NCBI GenBank assembly: GCA_963796275.1
Contig: CAWCKY010000006.1
Location: 704,001 to 768,000, forward strand
Direction of reading: 5' to 3'
DNA length: 64,000 nucleotides
Source of the DNA: an uncultured Acidobacteriota bacterium
GTDB taxonomy: Bacteria > Acidobacteriota > Blastocatellia > RBC074
How positions within the stretch are numbered: the stretch's first letter is position 1; each line of letters opens with the position of its first letter. A program made the translations under genes and the position numbers. Below, piece after piece: positions 22,381-35,312 of the stretch. Under the pieces are notes generated by a model. It saw nothing but the letters and a program-made list of their open reading frames with translations. It did not search any database and was not told the DNA's origin.

Positions 22381-25121
22381 TGAAACGCGCGATAGGCATC
22401 AAGAAAATAAGTAATGAGCTCAAGGCGCCGGAGGCGCATCCCGCCAGGGGTATCTGCTGGGTTTATATCACAGGATATATCCTGGGCATTTTTCTTCTGT
22501 CATCGTGTGCGAAGCATGAACCTTCACCACCCACATTTTCACGCGATTCCGCGGGTGATAACGATGATTCGCTGCAAAAAGCCGCAACCGACGCACTCGG
22601 TGATCGGGAAGGCGCGGTAATCGTTATCGACCCGAACACCGGTCGATTGCATGCAGTCGTCAACCCACGCCTGGCTTTCGAACAAGCCTTTCCTCCCGGT
22701 TCGGCTATTAAGCCTTTTACGGCGCTCTCCGCCATGCGTGCCGGGTTAGTTGACCGCGGAACTGCCCACTTGTGCCGGACGCGCTATGAACGTGGAGGAT
22801 TTACGATCGTCTGCGCTCACCGGCGAAGCGCCTCGCCATTCGATCTGCCGCATGCCCTGGCATACTCCTGCAACGATTATTTCGCGCAGGTCGGCGAGCG
22901 CCTGAGCCAGGGCACGTTCAATGCGACGCTCAACCGTTTCGGCTTCGGCGCGCGCACCGGCGTGAGCGCCAACGAGGCGGCAGGCGTCCTGCCGCGCGGC
23001 GAATGGCATGTCGCCTCGGCGCTCGGCGAAAGCGAGAGCCTGTTAGTTACGCCGATCCAGTTGATGGCTGCTTACACCGCGCTCGTCAACGGCGGCCGCC
23101 TCTACCGCCCGCAGGTCAGAAACAGGCGGGATGTACTTCCATCGGCTCATCTGAACATCGTCCCGATACACCGCGCCGCACTGATCGAGGGAATGCGCGG
23201 CGCGGTGAAATACGGGACAGCTGGGACAGCCGGGCTCGGGAGATTGCCGTCATATGTTTTCGGCAAGACCGGGACCTCGACATCGAGCAACGGTTTCCGG
23301 ACACAGGGCTGGTTTGTCGGTTTTTTAGCTGATGGTGATTCAGCCGAAGCTCCGCGCGAAGATCAAATCAGGCTCGGCGTACTGGTTTTTCTCAAACGGG
23401 CGCACGGATCACAATGCGCAGAAGTGGCGGGAAAGATTTTCGATTACGGATTGCGGATTGACGGCTTGGGAGAAAAAGATGCGGGAAAGGGGAGTCGGGG
23501 CGATGAAATAAATTCGCCCAGTCGTGCGGTCGCTTCCAGTCCGCCATTCGCTATCCACCATCCTCAAACAGTAAGTGTTCGTTCGATCAGCGAGAAGCTC
23601 ACGCGCGAGCTGCCATTGGAGGAGTACCTCATTGGAGTGCTCGAAGCCGAATCCGGCGTGGAAGTCGAGCCCGAGGCTTTGAAAGCGCAGGCCGTCATCA
23701 GCCGGACTTTCGCGCTGAGGAATACCGGGCGACACGAGCGCGAAGGATACGATTTTTGCAGCACGACGCATTGTCAGCGCTTCGTCTACTCAAAAAAACA
23801 ATCGAACTCAGCGCGCCGTCGCGCCGTCGAAGAGACTATGGGTGAAGTCCTGCAGGATGGGATGGGCCAACTCGTCGACGCATACTTTCATGCTGCCTGC
23901 GGAGGTGTGACGGCGAATATCCGGGCATTGTGGGGCAGTCCCTCGCCTTCTTACCTGCGCGGCGTGCGCGATGATTTCTGCGCGACGATGCCGCATTATC
24001 GCTGGACACAGACTATTCCGGCCGCGCAGTTGGTTAAAGCGTTGAAGAGCGATGCGCGCACGGACATCGGACCGGAGATCAATGCGATTCTCGTCAGGAA
24101 ACGCGACGCGACGGGAAGGGCCGAGTTGCTCGCACTCGAGGGGGTGCGCCGCCGTCTTGTCAGTGGATGGGATTTCAAGATTATCGTCGGTCGCAGCCTG
24201 GGGTGGCAGATGATCAAGAGCTCTCGTTTTGATGTCTCGCGTTCAGGCGGAGACTTCGTCTTCCGCGGCAGCGGCTTCGGTCACGGTTTGGGTTTGTGCC
24301 AGGAAGGCGCCCACGCCATGGCGAGCCGCGGGATGAATTATCGGCAGATCCTCAAGCATTATTTTCCCGGCACACGGGGAATGCGCGACATGCGGAGCAG
24401 ACGAAGCATGCTGGACGGCAAAGACATGCGGGACACGATGAAATTGTTGGTGAGTTTCCCGGGTGGTCCCGTATCCGGGGATGCTGGAATAATCGACCGG
24501 AAATCGCAAAGGGGAAGTTGGAAACTGATAGCGAGCGAGAACTTTCGTGCGAGTTTCTCCCGTGAGGCAGATAGGCGATCGGTTGAAAATGTATTACGGC
24601 TGCTTGAAGCCGCGCGCACAGACCTGTTAAATCGGCTGCAAATGGCGTCGGTCCAATTGCAGGAATCGAAACCATTCGAGGTTGTGATTCACGAAACCAC
24701 GGCAGATTTCATCACCGCTACCGGTCAATCGGGACTGGCCGCCGGAGCGACGCGTGAAAGGCGAATCGAGTTGCAGCCCTTGACCATCCTAAGGAGGCGC
24801 GGCATTCTCGATTCGACCCTGCGTCATGAATTGGCGCACGCTGTCATTGAAGTATTGAGCGATGGCCGCGCGCCCCGCTGGTTGTCGGAAGGTTTGGCGA
24901 TCTACGTCGCGGGTGAAGGCGCAGCGATGTCGCGCATCGCCGAAAAACAGCGGCTAACGCGCGAGGAATTGGAACGGAAGCTATCGCGGCCCGCTCCGGC
25001 AAAGGTCATGCGCGAATTGTACGCGGCGGCATATCGCCAGGTCATAGCTATGATTCGGTCGGAGGGTGAAGATATCGTCTGGCGGCTCGTAGCTGAAGCG
25101 CGTAATTCGTCCCTGGTTTAA
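22380..25121 (+). CDS. Lipoprotein fusion: penicillin-binding transpeptidase + SpoIID/LytB + zincin-like peptidase domain
   Basis: LSSC lipobox; SAIK, SCN, KTGT; EALKAQAVISRT, CSTTHCQ, GFGHGLGLCQ.GA; HELAH...WLSEGLA; start placed at the coupled ATG 22380. Confidence 0.88.
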   Translation: MKRAIGIKKISNELKAPEAHPARGICWVYITGYILGIFLLSSCAKHEPSPPTFSRDSAGDNDDSLQKAATDALGDREGAVIVIDPNTGRLHAVVNPRLAFEQAFPPGSAIKPFTALSAMRAGLVDRGTAHLCRTRYERGGFTIVCAHRRSASPFDLPHALAYSCNDYFAQVGERLSQGTFNATLNRFGFGARTGVSANEAAGVLPRGEWHVASALGESESLLVTPIQLMAAYTALVNGGRLYRPQVRNRRDVLPSAHLNIVPIHRAALIEGMRGAVKYGTAGTAGLGRLPSYVFGKTGTSTSSNGFRTQGWFVGFLADGDSAEAPREDQIRLGVLVFLKRAHGSQCAEVAGKIFDYGLRIDGLGEKDAGKGSRGDEINSPSRAVASSPPFAIHHPQTVSVRSISEKLTRELPLEEYLIGVLEAESGVEVEPEALKAQAVISRTFALRNTGRHEREGYDFCSTTHCQRFVYSKKQSNSARRRAVEETMGEVLQDGMGQLVDAYFHAACGGVTANIRALWGSPSPSYLRGVRDDFCATMPHYRWTQTIPAAQLVKALKSDARTDIGPEINAILVRKRDATGRAELLALEGVRRRLVSGWDFKIIVGRSLGWQMIKSSRFDVSRSGGDFVFRGSGFGHGLGLCQEGAHAMASRGMNYRQILKHYFPGTRGMRDMRSRRSMLDGKDMRDTMKLLVSFPGGPVSGDAGIIDRKSQRGSWKLIASENFRASFSREADRRSVENVLRLLEAARTDLLNRLQMASVQLQESKPFEVVIHETTADFITATGQSGLAAGATRERRIELQPLTILRRRGILDSTLRHELAHAVIEVLSDGRAPRWLSEGLAIYVAGEGAAMSRIAEKQRLTREELERKLSRPAPAKVMRELYAAAYRQVIAMIRSEGEDIVWRLVAEARNSSLV

Positions 25122-25123
25122 GC

Positions 25124-25333
25124 ATGAATAATACGGATGACGAAGATGAGAATACGCAGACTACCATTAACACGACTGCATACCGCCCGCCCGAGGAGAT
25201 CGCCGCTGACGAGTTGCGCTGCGTGCAGTGCGGTGCTCCCGTGCCGAATATAGCGTGCGGACGGATCATGCCATGTCGATCGTGCGGGTTTCCCTATCCT
25301 TTGGGCGATTGCTCGGATTATGCGGAAAATTGA
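25124..25333 (+). CDS. Small Cys-rich zinc-ribbon-like protein
   Basis: CVQC...C...CRSC...C in 69 aa, 2 nt after previous stop. Confidence 0.6.
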   Translation: MNNTDDEDENTQTTINTTAYRPPEEIAADELRCVQCGAPVPNIACGRIMPCRSCGFPYPLGDCSDYAEN

Positions 25334-25443
25334 TCCTGCCTGAATTTGTTCTGAGAGATCAGCCAGCAGCGTTCAACAGCCATCAAAAAGCGACCTGATG
25401 CCTCCCGATAAGCTTGACTGAACAATCCTAGCTTTGAAATACA

Positions 25444-25473
25444 TTGACAATCCCACAGCAAGCCGTGTATAAA
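25444..25473 (+). promoter_or_regulatory. Putative sigma-70 promoter of leader + sulfate assimilation operon
   Basis: TTGACA-18 nt-TATAAA. Confidence 0.55.
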
Positions 25474-25509
25474 GACCCTCTTGTGTAGAAATGAGACGAT
25501 ACTTTCTTG

Positions 25510-25670
25510 AAAAGTACCGAACAAACATAAAAGAACAGATACTGAAGAACAGATACTGAAGACACGAACACATAATGACAAACTACACAAGATACGAATA
25601 CACGAGTAACGAATATAAGAATATAAGAAGTTACGAAAACAGAAGTAACGAATACAGAAGAAAGCAGGTA
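25510..25670. repeat. A-rich low-complexity tract of degenerate short repeats
   Basis: aagaacagatactg x2; recurrent acgaa/taacgaata units. Confidence 0.7.
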
Positions 25671-25674
25671 TAAA

Positions 25675-25821
25675 ATGTCACGATCAACGCGATCAGAAAG
25701 ACTAATGCTCTTACCTGATACAGGGCTTAGTAGACGGCCCGCAGAATTCTCTTTTAGTCTCACCTCGATTCTTTCCTGCCAAATCGCCTGCTCCTGTTGT
25801 TGCTGCTGTTGTTGTCGCTAG
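25675..25821 (+). CDS. Poly-cysteine leader peptide (putative attenuator)
   Basis: MSRSTRSERLMLLPDTGLSRRPAEFSFSLTSILSCQIACSCCCCCCCR*; 9 Cys, 7 consecutive with mixed TGT/TGC; AGGT upstream; alternative ATG 25705; precedes sulfite reductase. Confidence 0.85.
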   Translation: MSRSTRSERLMLLPDTGLSRRPAEFSFSLTSILSCQIACSCCCCCCCR

Positions 25822-25825
25822 CCTC

Positions 25826-25854
25826 TCGATTGCAGTTCATATTTCTGCAATCGA
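25826..25854 (+). promoter_or_regulatory. Hairpin directly after leader stop codon
   Basis: tcgattgcag-9 nt-ctgcaatcga, perfect 10-bp stem, no U-tract. Confidence 0.7.
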
Positions 25855-25979
25855 TCTCAATCCCAAAAAATTAACTAACTTAAGTTTGCCGGTTGAATTG
25901 TATTCGATCAGGTGAGCAGGTTCAGAATGCAGCCTTTAATTGGTTGCCGAATCGCGTATTCGCGTTTGCGGAGACGACT

Positions 25980-27566
25980 ATGAAAGAGAACAAGGTCGAA
26001 CGACTGAAAATTGAAAAAGACGGCCTCGACGTGTGGCAGGACATTGAGCGTTATGCGCAAACGGGATTCGACACGATCGATCCCGGCGACATGGATCGCT
26101 TCAAGTGGTATGGCCTTTATACCCAGCGACCCGTGGAAGACGGTCGCTTCATGATGCGCGTAAAGGTGCCCAATGGAATCATCAGCGCCGAGCAGCTCGC
26201 GACTATCGGCTGGCTTTCACAGGTTTATGGACATTCCACCGGAGATATCACGACGCGACAGGGAATTCAGATTCACCATCTGCGCATCGAAGATATTCCG
26301 CATGCCATCAACGAATTGAAGAAGGTCTCCCTAACCACGCAGGAGGCCTGCGGCGATGTCGTACGCAATGTCGTCGGGTGCCCGCTGGCGGGGATCGATG
26401 ACAATGAGATCATCGACGCCTCGCAACTGGTGGATCAGGTTGTAAAACAGTTCATCGACAACCGCGATTTTTCTAACCTGCCGCGCAAATTCAAAATTTC
26501 CATCACCGGCTGCACCCATCAATGCGCGCAACACGAGATCAACGACGTCGGCCTGGTCGCCGTCACCAATAATGATGGGGAGGTCGGGTTCGATCTCTGG
26601 GTCGGCGGCGGACTCGGCGCGAAGCCGTATCTGGCCAAACGTCTCGGGGTCTTCGTCTGGTACGACGAAGCGGTCGAGGTCATCACGCGCATCGTCGAAA
26701 TCTTCCGCGACCACGGTTACCGGGACGACCGGCGCAAGGCGCGTCTGAAGTTTCTGGTAGCCGATTGGGGCGTTGAAAAGTTCCGCGATGAGCTCGAATT
26801 ACGGTTGGGACGCAAGCTCGATGACGGTCCTCAAACAGATGTTCCTGAAATTCAAAAACGCGATCACACAGGCGTCTATGAACAGCGCCAGTATGGGCTG
26901 TATTACATCGGCGCGGCTGTGCTGCGCGGCCGGATTTCAGGCGAGCAGATGAGCGCGGTAGCGGGACTGGCTCGGCGTTATGCGAACGGGCGCATTAGAT
27001 TGACCAACGCACAGAATCTGATCGTGCTCGACGTGCCGGCGGAAAACATCGTTACGCTGAGCAACGAGCTGGCACTGCTCGGTCTCGATCCTTATGGCTC
27101 GCCATTTCGCCGCGGTACGGTCTCGTGCACGGGCCGCCAGTTCTGTAAGCTGGCCGTCGTCGAGACCAAAGAGCGCGCAGAGGAGATCATTCTTTACCTG
27201 GAGCAGACTAACCCGGATTTCAGCGATGACATCCGCATCAGCGTGACCGGCTGCGTCAATTCGTGTGCGCAGTATCAGATCGCCGATATCGGCCTGGTCG
27301 GGGTGAAAGGGCAGGAGAATGGGGCAGAAGTCGACTTTTTCCAGGTCCACCTCGGCGGGCATCTGGGGCAGGGAGCGGCGTTCGGGAGAAAAATCTCCAA
27401 ACGCGTCCGGGTCGAGGAGACCAAATTTTATATCGAGCGGGTTCTCCGCACTTACCGTTCGCAGCGGCGGGCGGGAGAACTGTTCTATCAGTTCATCGCG
27501 CGCCACGATGCGAGAGCATTGGAGATGATCGATGAGCTGGAGAGCGTAGAGATGGCCGCTGTATAA
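25980..27566 (+). CDS. sir: Ferredoxin-type sulfite reductase (siroheme, NirA/Sir family)
   Basis: KWYGLY, DITTRQ, CGDVVRN, LPRKFK, CTGRQFC, GCVNSC; GGAG RBS before ATG 25980; substrate inferred from cys context. Confidence 0.9.
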   Translation: MKENKVERLKIEKDGLDVWQDIERYAQTGFDTIDPGDMDRFKWYGLYTQRPVEDGRFMMRVKVPNGIISAEQLATIGWLSQVYGHSTGDITTRQGIQIHHLRIEDIPHAINELKKVSLTTQEACGDVVRNVVGCPLAGIDDNEIIDASQLVDQVVKQFIDNRDFSNLPRKFKISITGCTHQCAQHEINDVGLVAVTNNDGEVGFDLWVGGGLGAKPYLAKRLGVFVWYDEAVEVITRIVEIFRDHGYRDDRRKARLKFLVADWGVEKFRDELELRLGRKLDDGPQTDVPEIQKRDHTGVYEQRQYGLYYIGAAVLRGRISGEQMSAVAGLARRYANGRIRLTNAQNLIVLDVPAENIVTLSNELALLGLDPYGSPFRRGTVSCTGRQFCKLAVVETKERAEEIILYLEQTNPDFSDDIRISVTGCVNSCAQYQIADIGLVGVKGQENGAEVDFFQVHLGGHLGQGAAFGRKISKRVRVEETKFYIERVLRTYRSQRRAGELFYQFIARHDARALEMIDELESVEMAAV

Positions 27567-27692
27567 GTCTGAATTACAGCAGCCAATGTTCTTCGTGAGC
27601 GTTTTGTTTATGGCGATCATTGATGAGACATAGTTTGTAACCCTGCTTGTCACATCCGAAAACAAGCAGAAGAAGGAGGGAAAGATACTGAA

Positions 27693-28856
27693 ATGAGTTT
27701 AATTGATCCACACGGGGGGAAACTGATTGACCGGGAATTGCGCGGGGCAGAGCGCGAAGCGCTGCTGCGAGCATCGGTGAAAATGCCGAGTATTTCGGTC
27801 AACGCACGTGCTGAGGCCGACCTTGAGCTTATCGCATCCGGCGCGCTATCGCCGCTCGAAGGATTTATGGGCGAAGCGGATTACGTTTCGGTCAGAGACA
27901 ACCGGCATCTGGCGAACGGATTGGCCTGGACGATACCCGTCACCTTGTCGGCCACCGATGATGTGAGCGGAACCCTGCACACCGGCGATGATGTTGCTCT
28001 GCGCTCGCGCGATGGGCGATTGGTCGCCGTGCTGCATCTCGCCGAGATTTTCAAATATGACAAAGCGCTCGAAGCCCAGCAGGTGTACCGGACTACCGAA
28101 GAGAAGCATCCAGGCGTGAACGCGATTTATGGGCAGGGCGATTATCTGCTCGGAGGCCGCGTCAGTCTGATCGAAGCGCCGAACCGCCAGGAATTCGGGC
28201 CTTATCGTTTTTCGCCGCGGGAGTTGCGAGCGCTCTTCACCGAGCGGGGTTGGAAGAGCGTCGTCGCCTTTCAGACGCGCAACCCGGTGCATCGGGCGCA
28301 CGAATATATTCAGAAATGCGCGCTTGAGACCGTCGACGGGTTGCTGTTGCACCCCCTCGTGGGCGAGACGAAAGCCGATGATATCCCGGCGCCCGTTCGG
28401 ATGCGGGCATATGAAGTGATCATCGAGCATTACTACCCGGTCTCGCGTACTCAACTGGCCGTGCTGCCGGCTGCGATGCGCTATGCCGGGCCGCGTGAAG
28501 CCATCTTTCACGCGATCATCCGCCAGAACTATGGTTGCTCGCATTTCATCGTCGGGCGCGATCACGCGGGGGTGGGCAATTATTACGGAACATATGACGC
28601 GCAGCGAATCTTCGGCGATTTCGCACCGGGCGAGTTGAAAATCACCCCGATGTTTTTCGACAACACCTTCTTCTGCCGCAAATGCGATGGAATGGCTTCG
28701 GCCAAAACCTGCCCGCACGATCCGGACAATCACGTCAGTTTGAGCGGCACCAAAGTCCGCGAAATGCTGGCGCGCGGAGAAGTACCTCCGTCTGAATTCA
28801 CGAGGCCGGAAGTGGCATCGGTTTTGATCGACGCGCTGAAGGTCGTTGGAGTGTAG
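27693..28856 (+). CDS. sat: Sulfate adenylyltransferase
   Basis: PHGG, FQTRNPVHRAHEY, YAGPREA, GRDHAGVG, SGTKVR. Confidence 0.97.
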   Translation: MSLIDPHGGKLIDRELRGAEREALLRASVKMPSISVNARAEADLELIASGALSPLEGFMGEADYVSVRDNRHLANGLAWTIPVTLSATDDVSGTLHTGDDVALRSRDGRLVAVLHLAEIFKYDKALEAQQVYRTTEEKHPGVNAIYGQGDYLLGGRVSLIEAPNRQEFGPYRFSPRELRALFTERGWKSVVAFQTRNPVHRAHEYIQKCALETVDGLLLHPLVGETKADDIPAPVRMRAYEVIIEHYYPVSRTQLAVLPAAMRYAGPREAIFHAIIRQNYGCSHFIVGRDHAGVGNYYGTYDAQRIFGDFAPGELKITPMFFDNTFFCRKCDGMASAKTCPHDPDNHVSLSGTKVREMLARGEVPPSEFTRPEVASVLIDALKVVGV

Positions 28857-28948
28857 TCAGTTTACAGTTTACAGTTTTCAGTTCTTAGCTCTCAGATGCG
28901 AACTAAAAACTAAAAACTGCAAACTGAAAACTGCAAACTGAAAACCGA
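28857..28948. repeat. Inverted heptamer module (CAGTTTW)n/(AAACTGM)n
   Basis: cagtttacagtttacagttttcagttc ... aactaaaaactaaaaactgcaaactgaaaactgcaaactgaaaacc. Confidence 0.88.
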
Positions 28949-28952
28949 ATGG

Positions 28953-29024
28953 GGCGGTGTAGCCAAGTGGTAAGGCGAAGGTCTGCAAAACCTTTATTCG
29001 CCGGTTCGATTCCGGCCGCCGCCT
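28953..29024 (+). tRNA. tRNA-Cys(GCA), CCA not encoded
   Basis: Acceptor GGCGGTG/CGCCGCC, anticodon arm AAGGT-CTGCAAA-ACCTT, T-arm GCCGG-TTCGATT-CCGGC, U73 discriminator. Confidence 0.97.
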
Positions 29025-29051
29025 CTCATTAAGGAATTAAGGAAAGGATCA

Positions 29052-29618
29052 ATGTCAAAAGGTTTTACGCTTTGGTTTACCGGATTATCAGGGGCAGGGA
29101 AGACGACGCTGACAAATGCGATTTTGCCGCATCTGCTCGAGCGAGGCGTCAGGGCCGAAGTTCTTGACGGGGATGAGGTGCGCACCAACCTGAGCAAAGG
29201 GCTCGGGTTTTCCAAAGAAGATCGCGATACCAACATCCGGCGGATCGGTTACGTCGCCCGCTTGCTCTCCCGCAATGGCGTGGGGGTGATTGCGGCGGCA
29301 ATCTCGCCTTACCGCGAAATCCGCGACGAGGTGCGGCGTTCCATCCAGTCAGATGGCGCGGCTTTTGTCGAAATTTATGTCACTGCGTCGCTGGAGGCAT
29401 TGATAGAACGCGACGTGAAGGGGCTGTACAAGAAAGCTCTGGCGGGTGAGATAAAACAGTTCACCGGCGTAAGCGATCCTTACGAACAGCCGAACAATCC
29501 TGAGCTGGTCATCGAAAGCGATAAGGAGACAGTCGCCGAGAGCGCGACGAAGATCATCGTCACTCTCGAGAAGCTCGGGTTGCTGGCATCGAATCAGAAA
29601 TTGGGAGCGATGATATGA
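29052..29618 (+). CDS. cysC: Adenylyl-sulfate kinase
   Basis: [32 protein letters not shown]. Confidence 0.97.
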
Positions 29619-30427
29619 AACGGGGAAAGGTTTATCTGGTTGGCGCGGGGCCGGGCGATCCCGGTCTACTGACGCTCAAGGCGAGAGATCTTATCGCCGC
29701 AGCCGATTGCATCATCTACGACTATCTGGTCAACCCGAAGATTCTGGAACACGCGGGGCCGCGCGCGGAATTTATCTACGTCGGCAAACGCGGGGTGGAG
29801 AGCTCGTGGACGCAGGCTGAGATCAATCGCCTGCTGGTTGAAAAGGCCGGGGAGCATTCAGTAATCGTCCGGCTCAAAGGCGGCGATCCTTTCATTTTCG
29901 GGCGCGGCGGGGAGGAGGCGGAGATGCTGGTCGATTCGGGAGTGGAGTGGGAGGTCGTCCCGGGAGTGACTGCCGGATCATCGGTCGCCGCATACGCGGG
30001 GATACCCATCACGCATCGCGGGTTGAGCAGTTCGGTCGCTTTTGTGACGGGCCACGAAGACCCGGCGAAACCGCAATCGGCGATCCGGTGGGAGCATTTG
30101 GCTAACGGCGTCGATACGCTCGTCTTTTTTATGGGCGTGGCGCGCGCCCGGGAGATCGCGGAACGGCTCGTGGAACACGGCCGCAGTTCTGAAACGCCCG
30201 TCGCTGTAGTCCGCTGGGGAACTTACGATCACCAGGAGACTTACATAACCACGCTCGCAAACCTGGCGGACCTGACCGCCCGCGAGCAAGTCGCTTCGCC
30301 CGCGCTTATCGTGGTTGGAGATGTGGTTAAGCTTCATGAGAAGTTGCGGTGGTTTGAGGAACTGAAAGAGGTTCCGTTCGCTCATCGCAACTTCCCTAAT
30401 CCATTTTTGGAGGCGCTGGCGGGATAA
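29615..30427 (+). CDS. cobA: Uroporphyrinogen-III C-methyltransferase
   Basis: [36 protein letters not shown]. Confidence 0.96.
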
Positions 30428-30431
30428 GCGC

Positions 30432-30550
30432 ACACGGGGCACGGGGCACGGGGCACGGGGGCAAACGGGCGACAGGGAAGAATGACCGAGATCAAACGCG
30501 ATTTTTCGCCTGCCGTCTGAATATCTCCTGAGGCTTCTTCGCCCGGTCAC
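30432..30550. repeat. (CACGGGG)n-type repeat with degenerate inverted arm
   Basis: cacggggcacggggcacggggcacgggggc... then ttcgcctgccgtc and ttcgcccggtc. Confidence 0.65.
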
Positions 30551-30565
30551 AAAATCTGTAATCGA

Positions 30566-31216
30566 ATGCGCTACTACCCTATTTATCTCGACCTGAAAGA
30601 TCGCGCCGTCCTGGTAGTCGGTGGAGGGGCGATCGCTGAAAGCAAAGCGCAGCAACTTAACGAGGCGGGCGCGCGGGTTCGAGTTGTAAGTCCAACGCTT
30701 ACACCGCTGCTTTCCGGATGGGCGGCGCGCGGAGTGATCGAGCATGTTCCCGGCCGCTTCAAAGAGGATGATTTGAAAGATGTTTATCTTGTCATCAGTG
30801 CCGCGGATGATCAGGCGGTAAACGAAGAGGTGGCGCGACTCGCCGCGGAGCTTGGATTGTTGATAAACGTCGTCGATCAGCCCCCGTTGTGCAATTTCAT
30901 TACTCCGGCACTGGTGACGCGCGGCGATCTGCAGGTCAGCGTATCGACCGGAGGAGGCAGCCCATCGCTCGCGCAGCGCGTTAAGCGGGAAGTCGCCGCA
31001 TCGATCGGCGAAGAATACGGCGAGTTGCTCAAAATTGCCGCCGAGATGAGGGTTGATGCGAAACAACGAATACCGGATTTTGAGAGACGGCGCAAAGTTT
31101 TACACGAGTTTGTCGAATCAGAAGCGCTGGATCTGATCCGCGCGGGAAAATACGAAGAGGCTCGTGAGCTCGCGCGTTCGTTATTGGAAGCCAACGGCGT
31201 GCGGACGGTAAGGTAG
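30566..31216 (+). CDS. Precorrin-2 dehydrogenase/sirohydrochlorin ferrochelatase (CysG N-terminal/SirC-like)
   Basis: YYPIYLDL, VVGGG, NVVD...CNFITPA, STGGGSP. Confidence 0.92.
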   Translation: MRYYPIYLDLKDRAVLVVGGGAIAESKAQQLNEAGARVRVVSPTLTPLLSGWAARGVIEHVPGRFKEDDLKDVYLVISAADDQAVNEEVARLAAELGLLINVVDQPPLCNFITPALVTRGDLQVSVSTGGGSPSLAQRVKREVAASIGEEYGELLKIAAEMRVDAKQRIPDFERRRKVLHEFVESEALDLIRAGKYEEARELARSLLEANGVRTVR

Positions 31217-31286
31217 GTTGTCCAACGCGGAGAGCTTCCCTGAAGCAAATACATTAATCACGATATTTTCAGCGGAGGAGGAGAGA

Positions 31287-31991
31287 ATGATCGATAGCCT
31301 GGAAGAGCTGGCGGAAGTTGAAATAGACCAACTGGCGCAGCGTTTTGAATCGAGCAGCGTTGAAGAAATCCTCGAATGGGCGGTCGACCGATTCGCGCCG
31401 AGTCTGGTAATGACATCGAACTTCGGCGCCGAAGGCGTGGTCGTCATCGATAAGCTGGCGCGCGTCGCGCCGCACGTCCCCGTCATTTATCTTGAAACCG
31501 GGTTCCAGTTCGGCGAGACGGACCAGCTCAAAGAGAGAATTCGCGAACGCTACCGGATTAATATCGTCGAACAACGCGCGGAGTTGAGCGTCGTCGAACA
31601 AAACCGGCTCTATGGCAAGAAGCTTTACGAGCGCGATCCGGACCTGTGTTGTCGCATACGCAAGGTCGAACCGCTCAAGCAGGCGCTCAGTGGATACGAT
31701 GGCTGGATCGCGGCGCTGCGGCGGGATCAGTCGCCGTCGCGGGCGAACATCGGCGTGGTCGAATGGAACGCGCGCCATGGGCTGGTAAAAATCCATCCTC
31801 TTGCCGCCTGGACGCGCCGCGATGTATGGGATTACATAATGAGCAATAAACTGCCTTATCATCCGCTTTATGACGATGGTTATGCGAGCATCGGTTGCAA
31901 ACCCTGCACGCGCCGAGTGGTTGCCGGCGCGCATGAACGAAGCGGTCGGTGGGAGGGGCAGGGCAAGCTGGAGTGCGGTATTCATCTCTGA
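31287..31991 (+). CDS. cysH: APS/PAPS reductase, 4Fe-4S type
   Basis: CCRIRKVEPL, RRDQS..R, Y.SIGCKPCT, ECGIH; start at ATG 31287 after GGAGGAG. Confidence 0.95.
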   Translation: MIDSLEELAEVEIDQLAQRFESSSVEEILEWAVDRFAPSLVMTSNFGAEGVVVIDKLARVAPHVPVIYLETGFQFGETDQLKERIRERYRINIVEQRAELSVVEQNRLYGKKLYERDPDLCCRIRKVEPLKQALSGYDGWIAALRRDQSPSRANIGVVEWNARHGLVKIHPLAAWTRRDVWDYIMSNKLPYHPLYDDGYASIGCKPCTRRVVAGAHERSGRWEGQGKLECGIHL

Positions 31992-32005
31992 GATGCAAAA
32001 GTCTT

Positions 32006-32034
32006 TTGTCTTTTTATATTTGCCTGAATATAAT
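32006..32034 (+). promoter_or_regulatory. Putative sigma-70 promoter for sulfate transporter genes
   Basis: TTGTCT-17 nt-TATAAT. Confidence 0.55.
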
Positions 32035-32134
32035 GGTATGATACGGCTTCTCAGTTAAGCGGTCAGGAGAAGTCAAATTCGGAAAATATTCCACACTGAA
32101 GCAAGAACCAGGGAGCAGAAAATCTACAAAGGGC

Positions 32135-33178
32135 ATGGTGTCTCTCAATAACACTCATTGCCGAATGTATGCACAGAAAACACTGGCGCTAATCTTTGCG
32201 CTGGCCTTGATCTTTGTATTGTCGGCTTGCCGCCGCAAATCGGATGTAGCGAAGGAGGCCACGGTCACCGTTTACGGGTTTAGCGTGGTGAAAGAGCCGC
32301 TCGAGGGGGAAATCTTCCCGGCATACGAGAAGCTCTGGTTAGAAAAGACAGGACAGCAACTGACTTTCACTCCTTCCTATGCGGGATCCGAACTTGTGAC
32401 GAACCAGATCATCTCCGGGGTCGAAGCTGACGTGGCGATCCTCGCGATCGAGCGGAATGCCGATCGTCTGGTGGAAAGTCACGTGACGAATCACAACTGG
32501 CGCAGTCTGCCCTACGGAGGGATCGTCAATAAGACGCCGATGGTGATTCTCGTGCGGCAGGGCAATCCGAAACGCATCCGCGACTTCAGCGACCTCGCTA
32601 AGCCGGGTGTGAATTTGATACATTGCGATCCCATTTCATCAGGCGCCGGCCAATGGTCGCTGCTTGCCGTTTATGGATCGGAACTGATCAAGTCCGAGAA
32701 GCGGACCGGCAGGCGCGACAAGAAGAAGGCGTTCGAACTGCTGCAACAGGTCTGGAAAAATGTGATCACGCGGCCGCTCTCGGCGCGCGAAGCCCGGACG
32801 CAGTTTGAGAGGCGCGAAGGGGATGCTCTTATCACATACGAACTGGAGGCGTTGCAACTCCTCGAAAAGAACTTGGGAGATGTAATGATAGTTCCGCCTG
32901 CTACGATCTTCAGTGAGCATCCGGTGGTGATCATCGACGACCATATGCCGGCGGCCAAATTCGCCATTGTCGAATTGTTTGTACGTTACCTTTGGGAGAG
33001 ACCGGCGCAGGAGGCTTGGGTGAAGTCGAGATTCCGGTCGGTGACCGATGAGAGTCTGAATGCCAAATTTGCCAAGATTGAGATGCCATTTTATGTGAAA
33101 GACCTGGGCGGGTGGGAACACGCATATCCGGAGATCGTGGATGGCGTGTGGAAGCGGGATATCCAGAAAGAGAAGTAA
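32135..33178 (+). CDS. sbp: Sulfate ABC transporter substrate-binding lipoprotein
   Basis: LSAC lipobox; VRQGNPKRIRDFSDL, PISSGAG, GDALITYE.E. Confidence 0.88.
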   Translation: MVSLNNTHCRMYAQKTLALIFALALIFVLSACRRKSDVAKEATVTVYGFSVVKEPLEGEIFPAYEKLWLEKTGQQLTFTPSYAGSELVTNQIISGVEADVAILAIERNADRLVESHVTNHNWRSLPYGGIVNKTPMVILVRQGNPKRIRDFSDLAKPGVNLIHCDPISSGAGQWSLLAVYGSELIKSEKRTGRRDKKKAFELLQQVWKNVITRPLSAREARTQFERREGDALITYELEALQLLEKNLGDVMIVPPATIFSEHPVVIIDDHMPAAKFAIVELFVRYLWERPAQEAWVKSRFRSVTDESLNAKFAKIEMPFYVKDLGGWEHAYPEIVDGVWKRDIQKEK

Positions 33179-33187
33179 ATTGCGCTT

Positions 33188-34018
33188 ATGAGTAGTAAGG
33201 TAATGACTCCGCCGGGGGTTGGTGTCGACCTGGCCCGTCCTCTGGGAATCAGCTTCATTATTGCGGCGATGATGCCGCTCGTCATCTTGCCGCTCGCCTC
33301 GATCTTCATCTTCGGTTTCAGTAAGGGGCCGGCACACTTCTTCGAGGCGTTGATGGCGCCGGCGGCGCTCTCGTCGCTCCGGTTGAGCCTGCTGACGAGC
33401 AGCATCGCGACGGTCTGTAACGTGATCTTCGGGTTGATCGCGGCTTACGTCATGAGCAGGCATGATTTTAGAGGCAGTTCGGCATTGATGATCATCATCA
33501 GCCTGCCGACAGCGATACCGACGGCGGTTGCGGGGTTCGCTCTCCTTTTATTATGGGGTCGTAGTGGATTGCTCGGACAGTTCCTCGAACATACCGACTA
33601 CCATATTATGTTTACGACCTCGGCTATCATTCTGGCCAATATCTTCGTGACCTTCCCTCTGGCTTTCGGGGTGATCAAGCCGGTGCTCGATAATCTCGAT
33701 ACGACATACGAATATGCGGCGGAGACGATGGGCGCATCGCGCTGGCAGACGTTTCGTTTTGTGGTTCTGCCGAGCCTGCGCGGCGCAATCTATACGGGCG
33801 CGTTGCTGACCTTCGCGCGGTCGATCGGAGAGTTCGGATCGACGATTATGGTGAGCGGCAATCTGGCGATGAAAACGCAGACCGCGCCGCTTTATATCTA
33901 CTCGAAATTCAATGAAGGCGATGTCGAAAGCGCGAATGCGATCGCGGCAGTGCTCGCCATTATTTCGTTAGCCATATTTTCACTGATTATTTTTTCGCGT
34001 AAGAGACTGGAAAAATGA
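33188..34018 (+). CDS. cysT: Sulfate ABC transporter permease
   Basis: LPTAIPTAVAG, FVTFP, AAETMGAS, FARSIGEFGS..MVSGN. Confidence 0.85.
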   Translation: MSSKVMTPPGVGVDLARPLGISFIIAAMMPLVILPLASIFIFGFSKGPAHFFEALMAPAALSSLRLSLLTSSIATVCNVIFGLIAAYVMSRHDFRGSSALMIIISLPTAIPTAVAGFALLLLWGRSGLLGQFLEHTDYHIMFTTSAIILANIFVTFPLAFGVIKPVLDNLDTTYEYAAETMGASRWQTFRFVVLPSLRGAIYTGALLTFARSIGEFGSTIMVSGNLAMKTQTAPLYIYSKFNEGDVESANAIAAVLAIISLAIFSLIIFSRKRLEK

Positions 34019-34020
34019 TT

Positions 34021-34108
34021 GACCACAGAACAATACGAACTGAAACACATAAAGCGCAAAAGGAGCAATTTGCGTTTGTTGTCGCACTATTTGTGATTTT
34101 TGTGGTGA
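34021..34108. repeat. Purine/pyrimidine inverted module (accacag...tttgtggt)
   Basis: accacagaacaa...cacataaagcgcaaa / tttgcgtttg...tttgtgatttttgtggt. Confidence 0.55.
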
Positions 34109-34133
34109 GTTATTCCCACAGAGGAGGAACGAG

Positions 34134-35312
34134 ATGGCGAGAGAAATGGTAGCTCCCTTACACGAAACTCATGCCTCTATCGATCCCAAAGCCGGAAAGC
34201 GCGAAGCACTGCGAGTTGTCGGCTTGAGCAAATGGTTCGGTTCTGAAAGAGTCCTCGACGATGTGAGTTTTTCCATAGCCGAGGGCGGCAGCCTGGTCCT
34301 GCTGGGACATTCGGGAAGCGGAAAAAGCACGACCCTGCGCATCATCGCCGGTTTGATCGAACCTGACGCGGGAGAGGTCTATTTGCACGGAAGACATATC
34401 GAGCATCTCCGTGCGCGCGAGCGCAATATGGGTATTATCTTCCAGAACTATGCGCTCTTTCCGCGCATGACGGTGGAGGAGAATATCGGCTTCGGATTGC
34501 GCATTCGTGGCATGAACAAAGAAAAACGAAAAGTGATAGTCGATGAATTGTTGGGGATGACGGGGTTGTACGAGCAACGAGACAAGTACCCGGCGCAGCT
34601 CTCCGGAGGCCAGCAGCAGCGCGTGGCGATCGCTCGTGCGCTGGCCTACAAGCCCGAGCTGCTCCTCTTCGATGAATCGTTCAGCGCCCTCGACCCGCAC
34701 ACCCGAGTCAGCCTGCGACGCGAAATAAGGGCCTTGCTGCGGAGACTGCGCGTGCCCTCTCTTTTCATTACCCACGACCAGGAAGAGGCGATGGAACTGG
34801 GCGATGAAATAGCCATCCTTAACGGCGGGCGATTGGAGCAGATCGGCGCTCCCGATGAGGTCTACAACAGCCCGCAGACCGAATTCGTCGCTACTTTCCT
34901 CGGAACTGCGAATGTCGTCGAGGGGAGCTGGCGCGATGGTTTGATCGCGCTTGACTGCAATCGGGTCCTCTCTCCGCCCAGGCCCGCGCCGCCGAAGGTG
35001 TCGGAGAGAGTCAAAATCGTCTTTCGGCCCGAGGACATCACGCTTGGCCCGCCGACCGGCCTCGTCGAAACCCCTTATCATCTGGGCGGCGGCGAAGTGA
35101 TCGATGTATCCTTCACGGGCGCATCGGAGAACGTTATGATTCGATTGCTGCCCAAAGGCGAGAAAGAACTATCGCCGAATGCCGTCTCCGACAAGAAATG
35201 CGACTTTGTCATCAAAGTATTACGGACGAAGTGGGATTCCCGGAAATTGAAGCTCGCCCCGGGCGAGGTGGTTTCGGTCGGTCTCAAGTCGTATAAGATC
35301 TTAAGGGGCTGA
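34134..35312 (+). CDS. cysA: Sulfate ABC transporter ATP-binding protein
   Basis: GHSGSGKS, FQNYALF, LSGGQQQR, THDQEEA; operon context. Confidence 0.88.
   Translation: MAREMVAPLHETHASIDPKAGKREALRVVGLSKWFGSERVLDDVSFSIAEGGSLVLLGHSGSGKSTTLRIIAGLIEPDAGEVYLHGRHIEHLRARERNMGIIFQNYALFPRMTVEENIGFGLRIRGMNKEKRKVIVDELLGMTGLYEQRDKYPAQLSGGQQQRVAIARALAYKPELLLFDESFSALDPHTRVSLRREIRALLRRLRVPSLFITHDQEEAMELGDEIAILNGGRLEQIGAPDEVYNSPQTEFVATFLGTANVVEGSWRDGLIALDCNRVLSPPRPAPPKVSERVKIVFRPEDITLGPPTGLVETPYHLGGGEVIDVSFTGASENVMIRLLPKGEKELSPNAVSDKKCDFVIKVLRTKWDSRKLKLAPGEVVSVGLKSYKILRG

Follow-up and report, generated by a model that had tools for sequence, protein, structure and literature searches.

The DNA analysed here (the window) is a stretch of 64,000 nt from an uncultured acidobacterium of the class Blastocatellia (assembly GCA_963796275.1, contig CAWCKY010000006.1), and the element under study is a tRNA-Cys(GCA) gene that lies within a row of sulfate-assimilation genes, all on the (+) strand and in the order poly-Cys leader, sir, sat, tRNA-Cys, cysC, cobA, cysG-N and cysH. 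As judged from sequence comparison, the feature is rather likely to be a functional accessory tRNA-Cys(GCA) gene within the sulfate-assimilation polycistron of a soil acidobacterium. In this arrangement, the tRNA that a putative cysteine-sensing leader would read is probably made together with the pathway.

Identity and structure of the tRNA-Cys gene

Two tRNA genes were found in the window with ARAGORN, one of them tRNA-Cys (anticodon gca) at 28953-29025 (+). The Rfam tRNA family (RF00005) matched 28953-29024 with 69.5 bits (gathering score 29), and the T at 29024, directly after the 7-bp acceptor stem, is the discriminator U73. U73 is an identity element for the cysteinyl-tRNA synthetase (CysRS), which is encoded in this genome by one cysS gene. 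The sat stop codon and the tRNA gene are separated by 96 nt, and the discriminator (29024) is 27 nt from the cysC ATG; the coordinates given by an earlier sequence-only reading of the window, which had described a co-directional tRNA-Cys(GCA) between sat and cysC, 27 nt ahead of the cysC ATG, were exact by ARAGORN, Rfam and these distances.

For structural comparison, 14 sat-linked and 9 housekeeping copies were aligned (23 sequences, 18 distinct). The D, anticodon and T loops are invariant in this alignment and the variation is held by the stems; in all 14 sat-linked copies the D loop, the GCA anticodon loop and U73 are unchanged. When the cloverleaf was imposed on the alignment, 99.7% of 359 cells were paired and 7 of 20 pairs carried changes on both sides. 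For pairing, double changes and covariation score alike, 0 of 500 shuffles came up to the values of the real alignment, and slid controls paired at 27-58%. On this comparative evidence the operon tRNA-Cys is a working tRNA under selection and not a relic, with a predicted use in decoding: the conserved anticodon loop and full cloverleaf are more than a bare RNase P substrate would need.

The operon copy reads TCTCA where the housekeeping copy (copy C, see below) reads TCCA, so that no CCA is encoded. CCA is encoded in 20 of the 47 tRNA genes of the genome and missing from the other 27, and CCA addition is therefore routine in this genome; because of this, and with RNase Z encoded, the absent CCA was dropped as a sign of a pseudogene. 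No match to O-phosphoseryl-tRNA synthetase (SepRS, TIGR00470) was obtained in the genome of the window (94.7% complete), and tRNA-dependent cysteine synthesis (SepRS/SepCysS) was dropped for this reason.

Copies of tRNA-Cys in the genome

The genome of the window (G000; here and below, G, C and L numbers are handles of genomes, contigs and loci) is an assembly of 9.46 Mb in 7 contigs, 94.7% complete. ARAGORN listed 47 tRNA genes in it, single for each anticodon except CAT (2) and GCA (3). A whole-genome count of tRNA-Cys genes had been suggested along with the sequence-only reading, and returned three: copy A in the operon, copy B at C6:1419027-1419101 and copy C at C7:294625-294699. Copy C is the near-invariant housekeeping type, with the same sequence across genera save for the T stem and the variable loop. 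Copies A and C can be told apart by position 6, by 26/27, by one T-stem pair with a compensated change and by TCTCA (A) vs TCCA (C). Copy A is 93-99% identical to the sat-linked copies of other genera, as against 92% to copy C of its own genome.

The claim that the sensed tRNA is produced by the operon that it controls holds insofar as the tRNA gene is inside the operon, but the gene is an accessory paralog, one of three. Since a housekeeping copy and a third copy exist, the leader would sense a pool that the operon supplies only partly.

U33 is near-universal in tRNAs. Seven accessory tRNA-Cys-like genes have another base there, with cloverleaf and U73 intact: copy B of G000 and copies in G018, G025, G027, G035, G030 and G036. 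These variants carry G33 or C33 (C33 in G036), and the copy in G030 also has the anticodon ACA; apart from copy B, their loci include L175, L179, L180, L186, L148 and L042. No such loop was seen among the housekeeping tRNA-Cys copies listed.

Conservation of the position

The class sample comprised 61 genomes, and the counts were drawn from 37 family genomes (the own genome included) of the 87 in the family; in 26 of these Blastocatellia genomes an orthologous sat with a readable 3' flank was present. A co-directional tRNA-Cys lies no more than 200 nt after sat in 12 of the 26, which belong to six genera (G000, G001, G002, G004, G006, G019, G020, G027, G029, G030, G033 and G035); the synteny check attached to the sequence-only reading thus found the position kept in these genomes. 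This count goes back to a locus scan (11 of 24 family loci, plus G035), and the genus g3 is represented in it solely by the unpublished genome G004. Two further genomes of the 26 (G013 and G025) carry tRNA-Cys 1.3-2.1 kb downstream of sat, behind a DUF1684 gene. In genomes without the tRNA, the sat-cysC spacer is as short as 25 nt.

Outside the family, tRNA-Cys followed sat in 0 of 6 loci of other families. Viewed from cysC, a tRNA-Cys is directly upstream in 9 of 30 loci, and in a wider collection in 8 of 80 cysC loci, which are exactly those with the 8 closest CysC (3 of the 8 duplicate loci already in the family count); it is absent from this place in the other 72 of the 80, which come from many phyla. 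As far as searched, the sat-linked tRNA-Cys is confined to one subclade of one acidobacterial family.

In a Sat tree of 36 rows, rooted at midpoint only, all 16 rows with an adjacent tRNA and one row with a far one fall inside one 24-row subclade (support 89/96); the tRNA is lacking in the remaining 12 rows, of which 6 are basal within the family and 6 come from other families. The distribution requires at least 7 state changes, compared with a shuffled mean of 12.8. This pattern fits one gain of the sat-linked tRNA-Cys followed by several losses or displacements. A scar of mobile-element integration was set aside as an origin, the flanks being the operon's own genes in every carrier.

Transcription and processing

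Co-transcription of sat, tRNA-Cys and cysC is suggested by comparative anatomy. In two genomes of the same genus, G001 (L129) and G002 (L126), the sat frame enters the tRNA, the TAG stop codon being formed by tRNA positions 8-10 (distance -10), and in four further loci the sat-to-tRNA spacers are 7, 11, 14 and 18 nt. On the other side, the distance from the discriminator to the cysC start is 24-76 nt in 15 loci; this leaves little room for a promoter, so that cysC would be transcribed across the tRNA.

A strict sigma-70 consensus scan of 25000-32200 (+) gave no sigma-70-like site before 32006, and no terminator-like site was listed from sat to cysC. No promoter-like site is thus listed in the 96-nt spacer between sat and the tRNA, in agreement with the sequence-only reading, which saw no obvious promoter there. 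The scan is so strict that it passes over a TTGACA/TATAAA pair near 25436-25465, ahead of the leader, which is the likely operon promoter as read from the sequence. To our knowledge, the promoters of Acidobacteriota are poorly characterised. The region 25520-25670, between the likely promoter and the leader open reading frame (ORF), is packed with short direct repeats (14-nt and heptamer-like units).

The enzymes for tRNA maturation are encoded in G000 (RNase P RNA, 277 bits; RNase Z, 353.7 bits), which is consistent with the earlier proposal that RNase P and 3' processing would also cut the mRNA. Given the position of the sat stop codon in G001 and G002, an RNase P cut at tRNA position +1 would separate it from the sat mRNA, which would then have no stop codon. 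A conserved hairpin with a CCAGG/CCTGG stem and a AGCGGTAGCG-like loop was noticed in the tRNA-cysC spacer of G002, G020, G030 and L045 (L010, L017, L018, L045); it is absent from the window.

Organisation of the operon

The features of the operon and its surroundings in the window are as follows (profile scores in brackets).

25675-25821 (+): leader ORF of 48 codons, ending in C-S-C7-R-stop (list of ORFs)
25826-25854 (+): perfect 10-bp hairpin, 4 nt past the leader stop, without a U-tract (sequence and fold)
25893-27566 (+): sir, sulfite/nitrite reductase of the ferredoxin type (NCBIfam NF007125, 470.5 bits, under the cut-off of 594)
27693-28856 (+): sat, sulfate adenylyltransferase (NCBIfam NF003166, 555 bits; cut-off 387)
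28858-28940 (+): hairpin of inverted heptamer arrays, copy of a dispersed repeat (fold and genome count)
28953-29024 (+): accessory tRNA-Cys(GCA), discriminator U73 at 29024, no encoded CCA
29025-29051 (+): 27-nt spacer with the purine-rich ribosome-binding stretch of cysC (sequence and distance)
29052-29618 (+): cysC, adenylyl-sulfate kinase (NCBIfam NF002059, 265.7 bits; cut-off 244)
29615-30427 (+): cobA, uroporphyrinogen-III C-methyltransferase of the siroheme branch (NCBIfam NF004790, 329.8 bits), overlapping cysC by 4 nt
30566-31216 (+): cysG-N, siroheme synthase N-terminal domain, precorrin-2 dehydrogenase/ferrochelatase (TIGR01470, 186.4 bits)
31218-31991 (+): cysH, (P)APS reductase (NF002537, 263.7 bits)
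32135-35312 (+): sulfate ABC transporter genes for binding protein, permease and ATPase (profile matches)

The start codon of sir is uncertain, as relatives align only from residue ~18-30. The sulfate ABC transporter genes are possibly a separate unit, with a promoter-like site at 32006-32034. The segment behind the tRNA had earlier been given as cysC-cysH: both genes do follow the tRNA, but cobA and cysG-N sit in between.

The spacer between sat and the tRNA

Heptamer units make up the 96-nt spacer, where they form a long inverted repeat without a U-tract, and the region 28840-29060 folds with -68.3 kcal/mol (z = -3.67). Arrays of at least 3 AGTTT-type heptamers were counted 103 times in forward and 125 times in reverse orientation in the genome (control patterns: 1 and 3). 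Combinations of a forward array with a reverse array no more than 80 nt later form 51 heptamer hairpins, and 28858-28940 of the window is among them. Both same-genus genomes, G001 and G002, have no sat-tRNA spacer and so do not have the heptamers. As the spacer is missing from them and 51 dispersed copies exist, the hairpin is best described, from its distribution, as a recent insertion of a dispersed repeat and not as a purpose-built module. The description of the spacer as a heptamer repeat module therefore survives as regards the heptamer units, but the module is not a dedicated one, being one of the 51 dispersed hairpins and missing in G001/G002; a dedicated regulatory role of the 96 nt was rejected on the same grounds.

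Other heptamers occupy the same spot between sat and tRNA in relatives: GCGGATT-type in G006, GCCAAGA-type in G030 and GAGATTC-type direct repeats in G004. Metagenome DNA contigs of four runs were also inspected, and these show the junctions present in environmental DNA. A 203-nt contig of run X1 spans 28786-28988 with 0 differences (X1 may be the source sample), and in one contig of run X3 sat is joined to the tRNA via a different, 51-nt spacer.

The poly-Cys leader

In most of the family loci scanned, whether or not they carry the tRNA, the first operon gene (sir or sat) is preceded by an ORF with 4-9 consecutive Cys codons at its C-terminal end. The leader of the operon is followed by a hairpin and then by a C-rich stretch, and hairpins comparable by eye lie behind the leader stop codon in several relatives. 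In the predicted fold, the stretch before the Cys run pairs with the start region of sir. By analogy, the operon leader resembles the mycobacterial translational mechanism (see below) as much as it does transcription attenuation. No Rfam family besides tRNA (no T-box) was matched in the window at gathering scores, and a search of seven related loci at E up to 1 likewise gave nothing besides tRNA; the T-box and other riboswitch readings were dropped, there being no Rfam match other than tRNA.

Accessory tRNA-Cys genes in other units

Copy B belongs to a second sulfate-uptake locus (C6:1414055-1422838; L039:56-8839), in which a cysA-like ATPase gene, a gene for an Rrf2/CymR-like regulator, sbp, cysT and cysW are followed by a Cys-rich leader ORF, a terminator, an invariant-motif module, tRNA-Cys copy B (L039:5028-5102) and a gene for a TonB-dependent receptor. 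The leader ORF has 59 codons (L039:4651-4830) with the tract CCCCPCSCLC, followed by a 12-bp hairpin and T-run, and a second terminator is brought by the invariant-motif module before copy B. The receptor has 1227 amino acids and is 79% identical to the receptor encoded after the sat-linked tRNA in G029.

A third kind of unit was found in six genomes (G013, G025, G036, G018, G034 and G026), where tRNA-Cys is directly behind a DUF1684 gene, at ~15-70 nt (example L179:1143-2267; further loci L142 and L236-L239). Ahead of the DUF1684-tRNA-Cys pair, three of them (G013, G025, G036) have a Cys-rich ORF and the same terminator stem as the copy B leader, and two (G034, G026) have a poly-Cys ORF ~0.9 kb upstream. 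In G018 a Cys-rich frame upstream of the pair is cut at the edge of the locus, and a leader is probable.

Accessory tRNA-Cys genes thus recur in this family in units headed by Cys-codon leaders. Their contexts may share one ancestor and so would not be independent events; their retention after rearrangement still argues for a Cys-specific logic.

In G029 (L041:3799-7437), G035 and G027 (loci L042 and L148), a TonB-dependent receptor (CarboxypepD_reg and OMP_b-brl_4 domains) is encoded between the sat-linked tRNA-Cys and cysC, the order being sat, tRNA-Cys, the gene for the 1212-amino-acid receptor, cysC and cysH. From this order, an outer-membrane transporter appears to belong to the sulfate-assimilation operon in these three genomes.

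Proposed mechanism and alternative explanations

From the gene arrangement we infer co-transcription, processing, regulation by the leader and a physiological purpose, as follows. The tRNA would be transcribed through sat from the operon promoter. Its 5' end would be excised by RNase P and its 3' end cut by RNase Z, and the CCA-adding enzyme would complete the tRNA, the last two steps being expected because the operon copy has no encoded CCA. Through these cuts, sir-sat and cysC-cysH would end up on separate pieces of mRNA, the second of them starting 27 nt ahead of the cysC ATG. A shortage of charged tRNA-Cys would de-attenuate the operon, and more tRNA-Cys acceptor would be made alongside the sulfur-assimilation enzymes; the larger acceptor pool would let the single CysRS pull scarce cysteine further into translation. 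On the return of cysteine, the larger pool would also let ribosomes pass faster through the leader, which would amount to negative feedback.

Several points weigh against this scheme. The operon leader is followed by a hairpin that lacks a U-tract, and it may, by analogy with mycobacteria, act on the translation of the first gene. If it acted on translation only, the tRNA would follow the leader solely via polarity, and it is here that the 'feedback loop' is weakest. A housekeeping tRNA-Cys is present, so that the loop is partial at most. The gene is dispensable at this place, as 12 of the 26 related genomes with sat have no tRNA there. A repeat has been inserted upstream of the window copy, and this copy, unlike most orthologs, no longer encodes CCA (15 of 19 rows read TCCA behind the acceptor stem). 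Terminator-like modules are found between sat and the tRNA in G033 and between the tRNA and cysC in G019. Finally, a promoter within the sat coding region is possible, since the strict sigma-70 scan misses even the likely operon promoter.

One alternative, which we regard as unlikely, is that the tRNA serves as punctuation only: it would be kept as an RNase P/RNase Z cassette that splits the sat mRNA from the cysC-cysH mRNA (for stability or stoichiometry), the tRNA being a by-product and its Cys identity accidental. In keeping with this, the tRNA is always at a cistron boundary (sat|cysC, sat|TonB-dependent receptor, cysW|receptor, DUF1684|next gene), and flanking hairpins could shield the RNA ends, namely the heptamer hairpins upstream in G000, G006 and G030 and the CCAGG...CCTGG hairpins downstream in G002, G020, G030 and L045; one ancestral insertion could explain all the contexts, with the Cys identity arising once. 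Excision in G001/G002 would take away the sat stop codon. For punctuation, however, a mimic of the acceptor and T arms suffices, yet the D loop, the GCA anticodon loop and U73 are invariant in the 14 sat-linked copies. Moreover, tRNA-Cys is the only tRNA that has been multiplied and its extra copies sit in sulfur loci, and 12 of 26 relatives handle the sat-cysC junction without a tRNA, with spacers down to 25 nt.

It is more doubtful still that the tRNA is an autonomous gene, expressed constitutively from its own promoter in the 3' end of sat or in the spacer, and a neutral hitch-hiker after duplication that has no link to the leader. The poorly known promoters of this phylum and the crudeness of the scan leave room for such a gene; its position has been lost repeatedly, several carriers have spacers of ~100-200 nt, and a terminator-like hairpin is ahead of the tRNA in G033. 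Set against these points are 6 of 19 rows in which the sat stop codon overlaps the tRNA or the spacer measures 7-18 nt, the distance of 24-76 nt to cysC (transcription of which must cross the tRNA), the linkage kept across six genera and the location of the other accessory copies behind Cys-rich leaders.

Equally improbable is a non-decoding role, in which accessory tRNA-Cys, notably those without U33, would be chargeable decoys or sensor tuners, or cysteine donors or targets in a non-ribosomal process under sulfur stress: 7 accessory copies do have G33/C33 with cloverleaf and U73 retained, and none of the listed housekeeping copies has, but the U33 loop is normal in the window copy and in 16 of 19 sat-linked rows, no SepRS was found in the 94.7%-complete genome, no candidate transferase was identified, and the non-U33 copies may simply be decaying.

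The proposed scheme of a functional accessory tRNA made with its pathway can also be extended to a self-referential cysteine 'ribulon' of this Blastocatellia family. The accessory tRNA-Cys genes (sat-linked, cysTW-leader and DUF1684-linked) would then be outputs of Cys-codon attenuators, the sensor controlling its own ligand and thereby setting gain and hysteresis, and the non-U33 variants would be chargeable and poorly decoding, tuning the sensor rather than feeding translation. This extension is speculative, and we consider its chances to be low.

Comparison with known systems

Mixed tRNA-protein operons, poly-Cys leaders and organellar tRNA punctuation are each already known. In leader-peptide attenuation of trp and his operons, the sensor reads the charged cognate tRNA; his attenuation depends on the tRNA-His level (hisR mutants), and the set-point moves with the dosage of the tRNA gene. 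In trp and his, the gene for the cognate tRNA is outside the regulated operon, whereas here it is inside, and the ligand of the sensor would be an output of the sensor. T-box riboswitches of Gram-positive bacteria are leaders that couple amino-acid genes to the charging of a specific tRNA; in contrast, no T-box match was obtained here, and sensing would be by the translating ribosome.

The tufB operon of enterobacteria (thrU-tyrU-glyT-thrT-tufB) unites tRNA and protein genes under one promoter (PMC6134099). As would hold for the operon studied here, it is a mixed tRNA-protein unit in which tRNA maturation necessarily cuts the mRNA; the tRNA-Cys gene likewise runs in the direction of its neighbouring cistrons and adjoins them, and the overlap and short distances seen in relatives leave little space for promoters in between. 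In tufB, the tRNAs are ahead of the gene for a translation factor and are unconnected with any amino-acid pathway. Here, by contrast, a single tRNA lies between biosynthetic cistrons, is cognate to the end product and is behind a leader that would read the same tRNA.

The short poly-Cys ORFs of mycobacteria (the 'Cys ribulon'; Canestrari et al., 10.1101/834739) were studied experimentally: low charged tRNA-Cys causes ribosome pausing, which relieves attenuation. As here, short ORFs with Cys runs are found ahead of cysteine/sulfur genes; the mycobacterial ORFs are leaderless and act on a ribosome-binding site, and the ORF of the window has 48 codons and a C-terminal Cys run. A tRNA-Cys gene is among the putatively controlled genes here and is not mentioned as such in the tRNA passages of 10.1101/834739. 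Also in mycobacteria, a toxin that cleaves tRNA-Cys stalls ribosomes at Cys codons, so that tRNA-Cys abundance governs stalling (PMC13096801).

In mitochondrial polycistrons, tRNAs between cistrons are processing signals for RNase P and RNase Z (PMC5474008). Mitochondrial punctuation is genome-wide and organellar; the case described here is one insertion, specific to a clade, into a biosynthetic operon of bacteria.

In the literature searched, which left most subscription journals aside, no description was found of a tRNA gene for the sensed amino acid inside an attenuator-controlled biosynthetic operon. The tRNA of an attenuator is normally treated as a constant set elsewhere, and here the cognate gene is wired into the putatively regulated operon. 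If co-expression holds, this would be a natural case of a cell changing the concentration of a sensed tRNA together with the pathway, with a bearing on how attenuator thresholds are set and how scarce cysteine is partitioned into translation. The sat-tRNA-cysC arrangement is also a concrete test bed for tRNA punctuation of bacterial mRNA.

The invariant 23-mer element

The invariant-motif module next to copy B contains a 23-mer inside a conserved block of ~40 nt, which is followed by a GC hairpin and a T-run. In G000 the 23-mer is present at C3:1114451-1114473 and at C6:1418926-1418948 (L039:4926-4948), and related loci are L195-L224, L021, L023 and L179. With 0-3 mismatches allowed, it was found in 68 of the 87 family genomes and in 15 of 17 genera (control pattern: 1 match), and it had no Rfam match. 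A riboswitch gating tRNA-Cys is the less likely reading of this element, as in most genomes its main copy directly follows a porin gene and as it forms tandem arrays; from its placement, the element looks more like a small RNA of a 3' untranslated region or a terminator module. The main copy is 10-40 nt past the stop codon of a BBP2/OmpL-like porin gene, and the tandem arrays, seen in some genomes, have a period of ~90 nt. Extra copies of the 23-mer adjoin sat or tRNA-Cys in G000, G033, G019 and G025.

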